The notes beneath the pieces are model-generated. The model saw nothing but the letters and a program-made list of their open reading frames with translations, searched no databases and was not told the origin of the DNA. Of a stretch of 53,869 bases of DNA, positions 2,830-32,444 are shown piece by piece. Source of the DNA: Verrucomicrobiota bacterium (GTDB taxonomy: Bacteria > Verrucomicrobiota > Verrucomicrobiia > JABWAM01); NCBI GenBank assembly GCA_016198745.1, contig JACQHZ010000387.1, positions 1-53,869 of the forward strand, given 5' to 3'. The first letter of the stretch is position 1. Each line of letters begins with the position of its first letter. Position numbers and translations under genes: made by a program.

Positions 2830-3855
2830 CTACAGCGCAAACATCCGCCACGGATCGCGATCGGGGTGGGAGAAACAAAACCCGGCCTTGCTGCCGGACG
2901 AATAAAAGATCGCGGCGAATTCGGTCTCGTACTTGAGCGGGTCGCTGTCGCCGTAACGGCTGACGGCTCCGGGCGGATCGGTGTGCGCGAGCGTCTGACG
3001 CAGCAAGGCAACGGTTGGCTCGCGCCCGCGCGTGAGACGCTCCATGGCGGCAAAGCGGTCGGTGGACTCGGCGAGCACGGGCGGGTTGTTGATGCGATAA
3101 GCAGACATTTCGGTGGTGCATGAAAAATTGGCGCAGAAGATCGGTTCGCCCTTGCTCCAACGCACGCCTTGCACGCTGCCCGCTTTTTCCACAATCGCCG
3201 CCGCACCCGCGCGGTCCACGAGGGGAATGTTCGCGCCCCATCGCGGCACGGTGAGAGTCTGCAACAACGCGACCGCCTCCCGGACGGTCGCGGCGCGGGA
3301 GAGCGCATGACGATTCACGACGTGCGGCGACAGGGCCTCCGCCGGCGCGGGCACATCCGCCGCGCAACTCGATCCGCCGATGGCCAGCCCTGCTTCATTG
3401 ACGCCGCCGCCGCACCAAACCGTGCCGGGAAAAGATGAACCAAGGAACGCCATGCCGCCTGCAGGTCGGAAGACGCGTACGCCCGAATGATGTCCCTCGT
3501 GGACGGGCAGGTCATTCGTCTTGGCAAGCAGCGGCCCGTCGGGCGTGCGCGGAAAGATGATGTTGGTGCAACCCTCCTTCGGCTCGCGCAGCACAGCGTA
3601 GAAGTTCATCAGGTAAATCCAGCGAAACGGGACGCCCGATCCGTCGGCGATGCCCTGGACCTCCTCAATCAATTCGGGGCAGTGTCGTTCCGTGCAACGG
3701 AGGTGTTGTTCGCGGGCGCGTTGGAACTTCGCTTCGTCCCAGTGGCGGAATCCCTTCGTCAGATAATCGAGCATCGAGCCGATCTGCAGCGCCGTGGCCC
3801 GTCCGAACTGGACGCCCATTTCATAGTGCGAACCGCTGGTTTCAACGTAAAACAT
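2830..3855 (-). CDS. C45 family Ntn-hydrolase (acyl-CoA:6-APA acyltransferase-like peptidase)
   Basis: GSHYEMGVQFG, EEVQGIADG, G-C-T autoproteolytic nucleophile (EGCTNII), GVNEAGLAIG; ATG at 3855 preceded by AAGGAG. Confidence 0.9.
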   Translation of the reverse strand: MFYVETSGSHYEMGVQFGRATALQIGSMLDYLTKGFRHWDEAKFQRAREQHLRCTERHCPELIEEVQGIADGSGVPFRWIYLMNFYAVLREPKEGCTNIIFPRTPDGPLLAKTNDLPVHEGHHSGVRVFRPAGGMAFLGSSFPGTVWCGGGVNEAGLAIGGSSCAADVPAPAEALSPHVVNRHALSRAATVREAVALLQTLTVPRWGANIPLVDRAGAAAIVEKAGSVQGVRWSKGEPIFCANFSCTTEMSAYRINNPPVLAESTDRFAAMERLTRGREPTVALLRQTLAHTDPPGAVSRYGDSDPLKYETEFAAIFYSSGSKAGFCFSHPDRDPWRMFAL

Positions 3856-3869
3856 GGTTTTCTCCTTTA

Positions 3870-3953
3870 ATCCGTCTCGAACCAAAACGCCAGCACCGCG
3901 GTATCATGGCTGATCTGCACTTGAATCCTGGCCTCGCGCGAGTTGTTTTGGAA
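3870..3953 (-). pseudogene. Duplicated 3' end of the GH42-like gene (14844-16910)
   Basis: 84 bp with 7 mismatches to 14853-14936; translates FQNNSREARIQVQISHDTAVLAFWFETD* versus FQNNSSEARIQVQIGHDTAALAFWFEMDMV*. Confidence 0.9.
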
Positions 3954-3954
3954 C

Positions 3955-4050
3955 GTGCTCCACGGCAATGTGGCGTCCATCAGCCAGATGAAAGATAAAA
4001 GGCCGAAACGGCTGTGCGACATATAAATTGTGAACCTCTTGAATGGTCAT
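3955..4050 (-). pseudogene. Truncated small hypothetical protein (QPFRPF..HLADGR family)
   Basis: MTIQEVHNLYVAQPFRPFIFHLADGRHIAVEH resembles the N-terminus of a small PVC protein family; cut exactly where the duplicated segment begins. Confidence 0.55.
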
Positions 4051-30600: not shown

Positions 30601-31145
30601 AGGGTGGTGTCGCGTTTGCAGAAACCCTGCTTCCAATTGATGGTCTCCCAGGCATCGTACAGCATGCCGTTCGATGAGATCCCGACGTAGGCGCCCTCAT
30701 AACCCTGCTCCTCCGGATGCGCATCCGGTCTCAGCATCAGGAAGAGAGCATCCTTGGCGGCCACCAGCGCCTGATCATCGCGCGCCTTGCCACAAGTTTC
30801 CGGCGAGTAACCCGGAGGCAGCGTCATCCGCAGGGCAAAATAAATGCGCTTGGTGTCGCCCGCCAGGAGAAACTCAGCCGGATAGGCATAGAGGTCCGAG
30901 GTCTGGAGATCCATCAGTCCGGCCACTCGGGTTCCATATTCTCCCTCCTCGATGCGACCATCCACCTTTGGCGCGGGACCCGTGGGATTCAGGGTGACGA
31001 GGTTGGGCCTTACGACAGCCGGTGGCGGGGAAGCAGAGTCGGCCGCTCGGGCCGCTAATGGACCCAGCCCAAGGCCGAGGGCGAGCAGGACAAAGAGCGA
31101 ATGGAAGCTCGTTCGCATGCGTTTCATGGGATTCAATTCGTTCAT
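27660..31145 (-). CDS. Large secreted glycan-processing protein (CBM9-like N-terminus, DUF6067-like/GH-like C-terminal barrel)
   Basis: Signal peptide (ARA-AD); APKVDGRIEEGEY..WTIEASVPW; VPSSWTPLKV..WGR; FGMQATPLKP; GGFFFD; FHPYWAN; ATGA overlap with upstream gene. Confidence 0.7.
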   Translation of the reverse strand: MNELNPMKRMRTSFHSLFVLLALGLGLGPLAARAADSASPPPAVVRPNLVTLNPTGPAPKVDGRIEEGEYGTRVAGLMDLQTSDLYAYPAEFLLAGDTKRIYFALRMTLPPGYSPETCGKARDDQALVAAKDALFLMLRPDAHPEEQGYEGAYVGISSNGMLYDAWETINWKQGFCKRDTTLNGNWEVASKINNGVWTIEASVPWEDIRLPAPGEERTYLLSFGVHLKDRRVAWQLHANWFDHYQAFGQLRVAKDPAVARLKLSEQIVQGVVAPAFTLTNGGPTDVPYELLYLVSTPRMVEGAVGTWIFDQQMGAGAKQVLRDHSVYFWNPSGTLKPGETKTESGTGQLETPRYYVLETEARLGGKLVWYQKVPFHFSPPVVAALMPIPSKNLVEARVAFLGARDEDKGALRVEFRQGEKGVLSRDLPITGKEMNIPLSMAPLSPGDYQVVFELKSRQGQSVFTTTTPFRKWEDPAWLKDRAGIQALDPDWVPSSWTPLKVKEGEVTMWGRTHRMQKGSLLAGITSQERPLLAAPVAVKYLRDGKEIRFPLSAPTVRASARGRVELEQSASAPDFDLAVRHRIEFDGMHLMTLRFTPRQKGVVQRLWVEIPLDGAVYSLAMAAEGREGSWWQHGLALDRTFQIPRRYHLIWLGNDDVGCSFFAENYKGWRINSSKPRITLKTEGAVKTLNLLLINEPSEVSATLELQFGMQATPLKPTPPRLREVRAGNGAEPPPYNVLMTHASIWNSTDSKPSPRSWPVLKDLITLAKSRGQQLNPYIGAFFICPWDYIRRDFPLPKDLNASYPSDATIKTKKDATKTDEYFYYQRDWDAVPPRVATTPMETREEVFTTPSGSYTDFFTGGVREILKHEPDFGGFFFDISTPPISLDPDKGHAYLTKDGVQEGTFESLATRDFYKRLYWLFDTHRGPGKKPWFIGHSFAACAPYASFWDMTINGEEIKPDRKFGFSDLVLQKSLEGNPSALPGKSESDKSYDAFGWRSCFGAQFGVENIVLPQYGYLPELNTVAHAREILAFTFLHNTRLRPAYIPVGTVEDFWNKVEIPFGLADTTFHPYWANDVRADPASIKVSYYKKLATDDYLVAVANWSDKETDAAVTLPAGFGSFSSCRNMETGDAIAVPKKWKLKIPAHDLRVFQFAVPAAQR

Positions 31146-31756
31146 TCGGCCGGCGCGAACGCCGCGTCGTCCACCCATAGTTCGCCGTGAACTTCGATCG
31201 CGGGCCGGACCGTGACATCATCTCCCGCGGGCGCCACGCACAGAAAGCGGCATTTCTTCCAATCGGTCTCGCCTTCCAACGAGTAATGGCTGGAGCTGCC
31301 GTCCGCCTCCTCGCGGCTCACCGTCGCCAGCGAAACGGAGGACTTGAAGCCGGCCACGCCGTTCACCTTGTGATAGAAGTACACCCAAGCGCCGGCCTTG
31401 CCCCGTCCTTTCGCCCAGTAGCTGAAGTGATAGCGCGCCCCCGCTTTGACCGGGATGACGGCATCGAGATACAGGTGTCCGGGCAGCGGTTTACCGGCGT
31501 CATCAACCCGGCTCTGCACAAGGCGGACCGAGCATTCGCCGCCCCGGACGAATCGGGGATCGCCCCGAACGGCCTCAATCACCTCAAAGGGATAACCCGC
31601 CGAAGCGTTGACGCGCCACCCCCGCAACACGCCGTTCGCGGTGACATCCTCGAAACCGAAATCGGGTGACGAATCCAGCCCAGCCGTTTCTCGACAAATC
31701 ACCGCCACCGACAATAACAGAAATCCCCGGAATCCTCGTCTCAACCATGACATCAT
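31142..31756 (-). CDS. Secreted CBM4/9-like carbohydrate-binding protein
   Basis: Signal peptide; DFGFE..GW..IPVKAGARYHFSYWAKGRG..DWKK..LWVDDAAF. Confidence 0.7.
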   Translation of the reverse strand: MMSWLRRGFRGFLLLSVAVICRETAGLDSSPDFGFEDVTANGVLRGWRVNASAGYPFEVIEAVRGDPRFVRGGECSVRLVQSRVDDAGKPLPGHLYLDAVIPVKAGARYHFSYWAKGRGKAGAWVYFYHKVNGVAGFKSSVSLATVSREEADGSSSHYSLEGETDWKKCRFLCVAPAGDDVTVRPAIEVHGELWVDDAAFAPAE

Positions 31757-31778
31757 TATTTTTTCCGGTTGCTGGCAA

Positions 31779-32444
31779 TTATTTTCCCTCCCAAAAGGAC
31801 GGACCTCCTGGCGCGGTGTACAACCATTTGCTGTTGTATTCAGACTCGGTCATGCCCGCCACATGGCCATCGCAATAGGCCACATTCATCATTCCGGAGT
31901 GCCGAAAGGCTGGATACCCATAAAAAGCGGAAAGGCTCTGATCGAAGTACAGCCAGAACGCGTAGCGCGAATCGGATGTCAGCGAGTCGGCATCCAGCCA
32001 CATGCACGCCTGGGCGGGATTTGCCAGGCTTTCGGGCTTTCGCGTTGCGTCCGGCGAGGACTTTCCAAAAATAAAGATGCTGTTGTAGCCGATTGTGAAC
32101 TGATTGGCGCCGTCCTTGTAGGTGACCGGGCATATCAGGAATCGGGAATGGCCTGCTGAATCGGCATAACCGGACGAAAGATGACCCAGCGCCAACAGTC
32201 TTTCACTGATCCATTCGGAGGTTGGCGTGGTGAAAAAGGCCGGCGGATAAAATCCATCATTGTCATTTGTGTAAAAAGAAACGGCCAGTGTCAACTGCTT
32301 CAAGTTGTTCACGCAGACCATTCTCCTGGCTTTGTCTCTTGCGCTCTTCAAGGCGGGCGTGAGCAACGCCGCCAGAATGCTGATGATGGCGATCACCACC
32401 AACAGTTCAATGAGCGTGAAGGCCGGGCCATCTCTCCTTCGCAT
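31779..32444 (-). CDS. Prepilin-type H-X9-DG protein (DUF1559-like)
   Basis: [49 protein letters not shown]; alternative start at 32567. Confidence 0.93.

Follow-up and report, generated by a model that had tools for sequence, protein, structure and literature searches.

A gene string with two duplicated junctions

The sequence analyzed here, called the window, is the whole 53,869-nt contig JACQHZ010000387.1 (label C329) of a metagenome-assembled genome (MAG) of a Verrucomicrobiota bacterium, which comprises 6.4 Mb in 522 contigs and is 74% complete. In the following, labels consisting of C and a number denote other contigs of the same MAG, and labels consisting of L and a number denote retrieved loci. 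The contig is made up of a series of glycan-degradation operons, each with a regulator and/or a DUF1559 pseudopilin at its head. This study concerns a string of five minus-strand genes, which is interrupted at two consecutive gene junctions by blocks of about 10 kb. The genes of the string, in the direction of transcription, are:

31779..32624, minus strand: pseudopilin-like gene, N_methyl and DUF1559 (Pfam PF07963, PF07596), first gene of the string
31142..31756, minus strand: 204-aa protein without family; an ortholog with 54% identity lies beside the pseudopilin in L014
27660..31178, minus strand: 1172-aa protein with a GH123_N-like N-terminal region (Pfam PF19543, E 3e-16); the L014 ortholog is 59% identical
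14844..16910, minus strand: GH42-like gene, 688 aa, intact, between both breaks; residues 6-685 align with the orthologs in L013 and L014
2830..3855, minus strand: C45-family proenzyme gene, 341 aa, intact, last gene of the string (NF040521, 157 bits)

The first-pass annotation, made from the sequence alone, had described these genes as a prepilin, a CBM-like protein, a 1161-aa protein, a GH42-like enzyme and a C45 protein. The pseudopilin and C45 assignments held, whereas the GH42-like identity is weak (Glyco_hydro_42M, PF08532, E 9e-5, below the cut-off), the 204-aa protein (the "CBM-like" one) has no match in Pfam or NCBIfam, and the third protein has 1172 rather than 1161 residues.

A self-BLAST of the window revealed three direct repeats, and a separate repeat search of the window returned the same three pairs. 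Two of them belong to the junction between the stop of the GH42-like gene and the start of the C45 gene (junction 1), namely 3733-3859 versus 14143-14269 (127 nt, 96.1% identity, E 1.5e-53) and 3870-3953 versus 14853-14936 (84 nt, 91.7%, E 1.8e-27). The longest identical run in junction 1 is 68 nt. The third pair, 16893-16984 versus 27601-27690 (92 nt, 88.0%, E 3.2e-24, with an identical run of 32 nt), represents the junction between the stop of the 1172-aa gene and the start of the GH42-like gene (junction 2). The claim that each junction is present twice in reciprocal form is thus borne out, with direct repeats far beyond chance expectation at the places where they had been seen. The parts of junction 1 are:

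3870..3953, minus strand: copy A, 3' stub of the GH42-like gene, 28 codons, own stop TAA at 3869-3867, 11 nt ahead of the C45 start
14853..14936, minus strand: first half of copy B, genuine 3' end of the GH42-like gene, 84 nt, 92% identical to 3870-3953
14143..14269, minus strand: second half of copy B, an aborted start of C45 that runs for 41 codons before TRT and a stop, 96% identical to 3733-3859
14270..14852: 583-nt spacer, in copy B only, with inverted GTAACTRCTCAG heads at 14275-14286 and 14836-14847

Copy A therefore reads, on the minus strand, as GH42-like stub, ribosome-binding site and full C45 gene (ATG at 3855), and the stub was also recovered by protein search (83% over residues 673-701). 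Both reciprocal copies had been recognized in the first-pass annotation, which missed that the two halves of copy B are separated by the 583-nt spacer. The parts of junction 2, together with a third partial copy, are:

27601..27714, minus strand: right copy, in which the genuine end of the 1172-aa gene (stop 27662-27660) precedes 41 nt of spacer and an abortive start of the GH42-like gene
16893..16984, minus strand: left copy, 9-codon stub of the 1172-aa gene (stop TAA), the same spacer, true GH42-like start (ATG at 16910)
20747..20788, minus strand: further remnant of the 1172-aa gene's 3' end (third copy, partial), closed by a stop of its own and encoding PAHDLRVFRFAAR*; 33 nt are 85% identical to 27682-27714

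The abortive start in the right copy begins with the ATG at 27618 and contains the first six codons of the GH42-like gene (ATG CGA CCC ATC CCG CGC, MRPIPR), beyond which unrelated sequence leads into an MNT/HEPN toxin-antitoxin pair. At both junctions, all four working gene ends are intact and the spare copies are dead stubs, so that the duplications keep the gene ends, as had been proposed. The third stub is situated between a toxin-antitoxin island (16985-20746) and a block with a regulator and a FecR-like gene (20789-27600). Its position shows that the second insert is itself composite and was built in at least two steps, in line with the earlier claim that such clusters nest within each other. 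The possibility that the third stub and the left stub are one copy that was split by the toxin-antitoxin island was considered and rejected, because the third stub has its own stop and lacks the spacer.

The 583-nt spacer of junction 1 contains a perfect palindrome of 28 nt (14663-14690), which forms a GC-rich hairpin and the roughly 60-nt surroundings of which recur up to 77 times in the genome. The spacer also carries copies of an intergenic repeat similar to repetitive extragenic palindromes (REP-like), which is headed by the 12-mer GTAACTRCTCAG and continues with GGTTCA-type units. The 12-mer occurs 133 times in the genome, compared with about 1.5 expected occurrences, and REP-like copies are found in the window at 5418-5522, 11747-11758, 12817-12992, 14275-14286 and 14765-14847. 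In groundwater metagenome runs, word depth in the REP-like stretches is 10-100 times that of the neighbouring sequence, which indicates that the element is abundant in the community. The spacer would be a later insertion of a repeat element into a junction that was by then non-essential. The 12-mer was also considered as an insertion signal, and this was rejected, as it was found in or near the repeats of just 1 of the 56 events described below, i.e., at junction 1, owing to the spacer. The TAA within GTAACTRCTCAG shows no preference for the stop-codon frame (19 of the 133 occurrences, compared with 15 and 9 in the other frames).

Relatives of the string were sought to find out whether the genes adjoin elsewhere. 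Among 40 other genomes, 8 contained a match with an E value of 0.001 or better, and the best non-self matches were partial and 23-44% identical. A search for related loci by protein yielded two loci in genome contigs and three in metagenome contigs, and one of these five loci is a 1.5-kb fragment. The other four have full-length orthologs of the GH42-like protein (54-55% identity), and the retrieved relatives are labelled Verrucomicrobiota. L013, L015 and L016 are identical over the 5 kb compared and thus represent one sequence, leaving two independent relatives. In both of them, full-length C45 orthologs (54% and 76% identity) lie directly behind the GH42-like gene (L013 and L014), at distances of 48 and 43 nt. 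This tight spacing shows that the GH42-to-C45 junction is conserved and has been interrupted in the contig analyzed here. The first-pass annotation had postulated one ancestral operon and had suggested looking for its uninterrupted form in relatives. For GH42-C45 this was successful (2 of 2 relatives), whereas a co-linear junction of the 1172-aa and GH42-like genes was not found and the evidence for it is internal. The five-gene arrangement is also not co-linear in L014, the closest relative that has all five genes, where the pseudopilin, 204-aa and 1172-aa genes are on the opposite strand, divergent from GH42-C45. Overall, the results support that the two blocks of about 10 kb are insertions into a contiguous, co-directional gene string.

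Contents of the inserts and the search for mobility functions

The two inserts differ in content and composition. Insert 1 is a complete regulated glycan operon with the following features:

3954..14142: insert 1, 10,189 nt, operon on the plus strand
4050 to 3954, minus strand: truncated small gene at the left edge
4244-5332, plus strand: regulator of the GntR/periplasmic-binding type (Pfam, NCBIfam)
5498-6310, plus strand: DUF1559 pseudopilin (Pfam)
6440-10420, plus strand: 1326-aa PcRGLX-like protein (Pfam, NCBIfam)
10429-12873, plus strand: protein of 814-863 aa
13007-14086, plus strand: second C45 gene (Pfam, NCBIfam)

The two C45 genes are not close paralogs and share no nucleotide repeat. 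Of the small gene at the left edge, 32 of about 78 codons are left, and the cut coincides exactly with the repeat boundary; a paralog on C52 with 59% identity is 78 codons long. This cut looks like an illegitimate join rather than a defined end of an element. The composition of insert 1 is native-like (GC content 57.1%, tetranucleotide distance at the 23rd percentile). When the 814-aa protein was used as a query, one contig of 4.9 kb and two distant loci from Clostridia were retrieved, which were uninformative on the insert borders.

Insert 2 (16985-27600, 10,616 nt) consists of two parts, denoted 2a and 2b:

16985..20746: insert 2a, toxin-antitoxin island, GC content 54.2%
17198-17810, minus strand: DUF5615/DUF433 pair (Pfam)
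18258-18880, plus strand: Phd/PIN pair (Pfam)
19125-19514: MNT (Pfam)
19435-19893: truncated HEPN, profile positions 1-60 of 117 only
20447-20689, minus strand: ParE-like toxin (Pfam)
20789..27600: insert 2b, GC content 53.0%
23931-25556: FecR-like protein, 541 aa (Pfam, NCBIfam)
25588-26532: AraC/PocR regulator (Pfam, NCBIfam)
26825-27331 and 27231-27563: HEPN and MNT of a toxin-antitoxin pair (Pfam)
within insert 2b: proteins of 397 aa and 603 aa without family

Both parts are atypical in GC content compared with the genome mean of 58.1%, whereas the split genes are normal. Insert 2b has a lower GC content than any of the 150 background windows and a tetranucleotide distance at the 99th percentile. 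In its composition, insert 2 is foreign. The region 19435-19988 contains decayed toxin-antitoxin genes, including an open reading frame (ORF) of 96 aa that resembles a C-terminal PIN fragment and has no Pfam match. Between the AraC/PocR and HEPN genes, a sequence of about 170-200 nt (26590-26760) has about eight further copies on other contigs, with 76-83% identity. It may be a leader, a promoter module or a small element. Judged from the gene arrangement, the same-strand genes at the insert edges, which lie directly upstream of the string genes (4050-3954 and DUF433/DUF5615 at 17810-17198), may now drive the C45 and GH42-like genes, respectively.

As had been stated before, no mobility functions were found in the window: among 40 ORFs scanned with Pfam no integrase or transposase family was detected, there is no tRNA, and no Rfam family reached the gathering score. 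The 603-, 397-, 814- and 1326-aa proteins have little or no family assignment, and a novel enzyme may therefore be among them. Tyrosine recombinases (PF00589) have nine matches in the genome, all of them on other contigs, and none of the 56 events described below is located on those contigs. An inverted repeat at the insert ends was not found among the listed repeat pairs, and only the 583-nt spacer has inverted REP-like ends. The duplications, about 220 and 92 nt at the two junctions and 44-453 nt genome-wide, are far longer than the target duplications of transposons, again as previously claimed. With long duplications, no transposase family detected and no terminal inverted repeats among the listed pairs, the two inserts do not match DNA transposons, insertion sequences or miniature inverted-repeat transposable elements. 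Nor do they match site-specific integrative elements, as no integrase was detected on the contig and no shared core site was found at the boundaries of 50 events. A ComEC-type competence gene is present in the genome. Ku (PF02735) had no match, which does not imply absence in a genome that is only 74% complete.

Two further observations concern the remainder of the contig. The C45 gene is followed downstream by a hybrid histidine kinase gene (118-2793; CHASE3, HisKA, HATPase, two receiver domains, Hpt) with a GC content of 53.4% (4th percentile) and a tetranucleotide distance at the 96th percentile, which may be another acquisition. The repeats 12-98 and 35496-35582 (87 nt, 92% complementary, 35.4 kb apart) were considered as the scar of an inversion, and this was rejected because they are copies of a dispersed REP-like element. 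This family (12-98 / 35496-35625) has dozens of copies in the genome, many of them at contig ends, and it probably breaks the assembly.

Recurrence of direct repeats in the genome

A self-comparison of the window and the genome for such duplications had been proposed together with the first-pass annotation, and it revealed that the signature is not confined to the window. The whole-genome comparison yielded 260 repeat pairs on the same contig. Screening for pairs of 40-450 nt with at least 84% identity and at least 400 nt apart resulted in 97 direct and 16 inverted pairs. After removal of 13 pairs within longer paralog alignments and 27 pairs with more than three copies, 59 direct pairs (representing 56 events) and 7 inverted pairs with at most three copies remained (binomial p 2e-11). 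The direct pairs are 44-453 nt long (median 90) and 85-100% identical, and the inserts of the 56 events range from 0.5 to 22.5 kb (median 2.2 kb). Both junction repeats of the window pass the copy-number filter (no more than three copies); they are thus unique local copies and not dispersed repeats.

A long gene harbours one copy, and not the other, in 35 of the 59 pairs. Typically, the 3' end of a gene is repeated 0.8-5 kb downstream, with an accessory module in between, e.g., a HEPN/MNT pair in C299 (218-nt repeats), a HigB-type pair in C96 and a PIN gene in C179. Another direct pair is located at 18263-18475 and 40945-41157 in C209 (213 nt). Serial insertion at a single gene end is seen once more in C323 (20204-25263, L044-L046), where a 1545-aa gene has its 3' end in three direct copies of 62-155 nt with 90-94% identity, and two paralogous KAP-family NTPase genes as well as small genes lie between the three copies.

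The cargo was characterized by a Pfam scan of 81 of 83 ORFs (two duplicates were dropped) from the 42 events with inserts of up to 5.5 kb. The 25 commonest of 59 families point to defence-type and other accessory functions and include KAP NTPase, SNF2/ResIII helicase, DUF3226 with AAA_21/AAA_15, YhcG nuclease, HipA, HEPN, HigB and signalling proteins. The converse question, whether toxin-antitoxin loci are flanked by repeats, was addressed with loci found with seeds from the window. Direct repeats flanked 6 of the 36 testable loci and inverted repeats none, compared with 13 and 2, respectively, of 400 random intervals of 800 nt (Fisher p 0.003). None of the four boundaries shows a conserved base across the 50 events (of 56) with sufficient flanking sequence.

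Two cases show duplications in other configurations. In C284 (9881-10275), a stretch of 198 nt is duplicated in tandem with 98% identity and with nothing between the copies; long duplications thus arise in this genome without captured DNA, too. In C115 (21166-24878, L025), a stretch of about 440 nt is present twice (95-97% identity), and one copy contains a DUF433/DUF5615 pair in an 801-nt gap, whereas the other has 155 nt there. In effect, the two copies represent an occupied site and an empty one next to each other within the same genome.

Sequence differences between the repeat copies were analyzed because the two principal routes of origin differ in their predictions. A stub that decays freely beside a partner under selection would show mild synonymous enrichment, whereas strong enrichment would be expected for two alleles that were once functional. 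At random, 19-21% of the changes would be synonymous in two pieces of the window. The abortive C45 start differs from the true start at five positions, all of them synonymous (P 4.5e-4 under random change), while the GH42-like stub has three synonymous and four non-synonymous differences (of seven) from the true 3' end. Over the whole genome, the change is synonymous in 121 of 278 altered codons, and third positions account for 156 of 322 differences; these values are based on crude gene calls, and wrong frames would lower the synonymous share.

Origin of the inserts and known systems

Taken together, the duplications are direct, specific for each locus and variable in length, there is neither a recombinase nor a boundary motif, one insert edge cuts a gene and one insert is foreign, all of which points to general illegitimate recombination. 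We therefore assume, with a probability of about 0.7, that the two inserts are insertions with long target duplication that arose by general recombination. The five-gene glycan-degradation string (pseudopilin, 204-aa, 1172-aa, GH42-like, C45) would have taken up accessory DNA at two consecutive junctions, and each insertion would have duplicated its own target, about 220 nt at GH42|C45 and about 92 nt at 1172|GH42. One copy would have stayed with the intact upstream gene and the other with the intact downstream gene, with the spare halves left behind as stubs, and the joins would have been made by non-site-specific recombination independent of integrase or transposase. The placement at gene junctions would be a survivorship effect, because only duplications that restore both gene ends leave a viable operon. 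The flanking repeats would also permit the clean loss of a block by homologous recombination.

Within this class of events, a true duplication of the target that was made in place during insertion has, in our view, slightly less than an even chance. The target might have been opened by nicks or stalls about 100-200 nt apart, or the replisome might have switched templates and returned upstream, and gap filling would have copied the stretch in between.

Several points weigh against the reading of an in-place insertion with target duplication. The genome-wide synonymous share is intermediate, above the random value and far below that of two working alleles, and favours neither origin. The exclusively synonymous differences of the C45 piece, which is one of about 35 pieces, hint at two once-functional alleles rather than at a duplication in place. 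The 583-nt spacer in copy B requires additional events in the history of the locus, and the same is true for the third stub, which lacks the spacer and the GH42 start. The co-linear 1172-to-GH42 junction is present in no relative, and its support is the duplicated junction of this contig alone. The nearest relatives, with 54-76% protein identity, are too distant for an empty site to be recognized at the nucleotide level. Finally, the MAG is fragmented (522 contigs, 74% complete) and no independent contig or read bridges the four boundaries.

The GH42-like stretch was recovered with more than half of the sampled words in two groundwater metagenome runs of a single study, and it is partly present in ten runs from 4 studies. 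The read-level data are Logan contigs from the two best runs, which are short and have a word depth of about 2-9 outside repeats. In these thin, low-depth data, 0 of the 15 (of 18) joints listed connect two copies of one junction, most being at REP-like repeats, and 0 of the 32 (of 963) pieces listed bridge 3953/3954, 14142/14143, 16984/16985 or 27600/27601. One per-run contig covers 20734-21156 (the third stub plus the last part of the 603-aa gene) without any difference, and another covers 14754-15103 (the GH42-like stop region). In an exact protein look-up, the 688-aa GH42-like and 341-aa C45 products were each on record on one contig, and three stub or chimeric ORFs and two over-long ORFs spanning the junctions had no exact match, so that an independent assembly does not exist. 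At 90% identity, the GH42-like and C45 products are singletons among about 15 billion proteins. A groundwater contig from a different study (run X5) contains the 5' part of the C45 gene (3670-3845) with 3 differences in 176 nt, and upstream of C45 codon 4 it has 125 further letters that do not fit the window. It may stem from a strain, roughly 94-98% identical, with another context upstream of C45.

Among the other routes, we consider homology-facilitated illegitimate recombination (HFIR) unlikely. A fragment from a related strain would have been anchored in a shared gene, its other end would have been joined illegitimately slightly upstream, and the repeat copies would be different alleles. 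This would readily explain the 5/5 synonymous differences of the abortive C45 start, the genome-wide share of 121/278 above the 19-21% expected at random and the native-like composition of insert 1, and the ComEC-type gene is consistent with uptake of such a fragment. The successive 3' stubs at 20747-20788 and in C323 (three copies) also resemble the orphan 3' arrays of type VI secretion system (T6SS) clusters in Vibrio, as portrayed in the sections of PMC5361080 drawn on here. However, at both junctions the donor would have needed a truncated partner gene already beside the insert, which is an extra step, 4 of the 7 changes in the GH42 stub are non-synonymous, and there is no donor allele for comparison. 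In the same sections, HFIR is described as rare and as mainly forming deletions (PMC5361080). The first-pass annotation had suggested, as examples of a gene-preserving route, single-crossover integration of circular DNA or repeat-mediated recombination. In the former, a circle that carried the insert and one copy of the junction would have entered by a single homologous crossover of the Campbell type, leaving the homology duplicated on both sides, and re-excision would let the block spread between strains. With identical runs of 68 nt (junction 1) and 32 nt (junction 2), the repeats are long enough for RecA, every repeat is direct, and the differences in the C45 piece are all synonymous. An excise-and-reinvade cycle has been hypothesized for the known class in the part of PMC2853133 used here. 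Nevertheless, the circle must already have carried the junction, and the route thus accounts for the spread and not for the origin of the block; moreover, the insert edge cuts a small gene. A joint between repeat copies is not among the contig joints listed, in data too thin for this to count. We regard the circle route as improbable.

The remaining two explanations dispense with insertion altogether. The blocks could be old residents, when a segmental duplication was followed by deletions or when C45 was transposed together with a piece of its neighbour. Tandem duplications without insert do exist in this genome, as in C284 (198 nt, 98%), and the excerpted text of PMC3457768 names recombination after a tandem duplication as an alternative. 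We regard this as very improbable, because each of the two adjacent junctions would have had to undergo two or more events, with all four genes ending up intact, and because the GH42-C45 junction is tight in relatives and insert 2 is compositionally foreign. Two further results fit a gain of DNA better, namely the predominance of direct over inverted pairs (59 to 7) and the accessory genes carried by the short inserts. An assembly chimera of two strains within the metagenome bin, the reading to which the fragmentation of the MAG, the low word depth of about 2-9 and the 32-nt identical stretch within junction 2 would lend themselves, is scarcely credible. The copies differ by 4-12%, homology stops abruptly and no long word is shared at the boundaries, one contig over 20734-21156 is free of differences and another covers 14754-15103, and the signature recurs 56 times with a gene-preserving geometry.

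Insertion with long target duplication, the preferred explanation, bears on a general problem, as the entry of accessory genes without mobility functions, such as toxin-antitoxin, defence and catabolic operons, into chromosomes is poorly understood. The locus shows the footprint at its largest and cleanest, with two 10-kb blocks at adjacent junctions and all flanking genes preserved, and one block consists of a whole glycan operon with its regulator rather than a selfish module. The 56 events in one uncultured groundwater genome suggest that this is a major route of gene gain there. A more far-reaching idea, which we regard as doubtful, is that the lineage runs a frequent, recombinase-independent and reversible "plug-in" route at gene ends that duplicates 50-450 nt, in which case the at least 56 events per 6.4 Mb would reflect a property of the host. 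If so, this property could be, e.g., the machinery for replication restart or transformation, and not background illegitimate recombination. The cargo would range from a single toxin-antitoxin pair to a 10-kb regulated catabolic operon, operons would survive being split, and blocks could be lost or passed on cleanly via the flanking repeats. The set of 56 events, with its boundaries, lengths and cargo, provides material for examining models of template switching, staggered breaks, one-ended joining and circles. It is also a warning for annotation, as short ORFs and "pseudogenes" at operon junctions can be stubs of a duplication.

Several known systems share features with the locus. Integrase islands and prophages are bordered by attL/attR, two copies of the 3' end of a tRNA gene or a protein gene. 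As in the window, direct repeats restore the end of the target gene on one side, but here no integrase or tRNA is present, the repeat differs from site to site, and no common core was found at the boundaries of 50 events.

The closest match is found with insertion with long target duplication, which was reportedly described by Nobusato et al. in 2000 (said to be in Gene 259:99). In the passages used here, Furuta, Abe and Kobayashi (2010) applied as criteria repeats above 30 bp, inserts below 20 kb and no other mobile element (PMC2853133). They found duplications of 46 to about 420 bp (46-423 bp) around restriction-modification genes in several phyla, some of which overlapped the 3' end of a gene. 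The mechanism was treated there at the level of a hypothesis, involving double-strand breakage and a cycle in which the DNA is inserted, amplified and released (PMC2853133). Insertion with long target duplication has also been described for "other DNAs" in the available part of PMC3457768. Both inserts of the window are flanked by direct repeats above 30 bp that are unique copies of the local target, are smaller than 20 kb and have no mobility family. Restriction-modification cargo, which was part of the screen by Furuta et al. and not of the mechanism, is not present, as no R or M family was detected in the inserts. As far as those passages go, the likeness lies in the size of the block (below 20 kb), its lack of mobility genes and its flanking direct repeats, which measure tens to hundreds of base pairs. 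The repeats are genome-unique copies of the local target that vary between sites and often overlap a 3' end, addictive or defence modules are frequent as cargo, and the mechanism is unsolved. In contrast to the restriction-modification genes, the inserts of the window carry a whole regulated glycan operon, toxin-antitoxin pairs and a cluster with a regulator and a FecR-like gene. Furthermore, adjacent junctions of one string were hit, one of them in a nested fashion, and at least 56 events are found in an uncultured Verrucomicrobium.

Three other cases resemble the locus in part. In the T6SS/Rhs/CDI (contact-dependent inhibition) arrays of Kirchberger et al. (2017), modules likewise enter beside a conserved gene end and 3' remnants are pushed downstream, and in the sections drawn on above the strings of orphan 3' regions in Vibrio T6SS clusters were attributed to HFIR (PMC5361080). 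According to these sections, toxin tips and immunity genes are under selection there, whereas the stubs here have 9-28 codons and no function and the flanking enzymes are unrelated. Campbell integration and the merodiploids formed during transformation (Johnston et al. 2013, PMC3784515) also duplicate direct homology around incoming DNA in a reversible manner, but such integration requires that the homology pre-exists on the incoming DNA. The unit of Tsuru and Kobayashi (2008; PMC2568036), consisting of a 3' region, a spacer and the next 5' region, is similar in that a gene junction and not a gene is duplicated. In the portion of that study used for comparison it connects tandem paralogs, while here the genes are unrelated and the junction brackets foreign DNA. 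Among the papers listed by the literature search, there was no account of such insertions of catabolic operons or toxin-antitoxin pairs in Verrucomicrobia. The class of footprint has already been described, with its mechanism unsolved, and the locus is a clear, doubly nested example of it.

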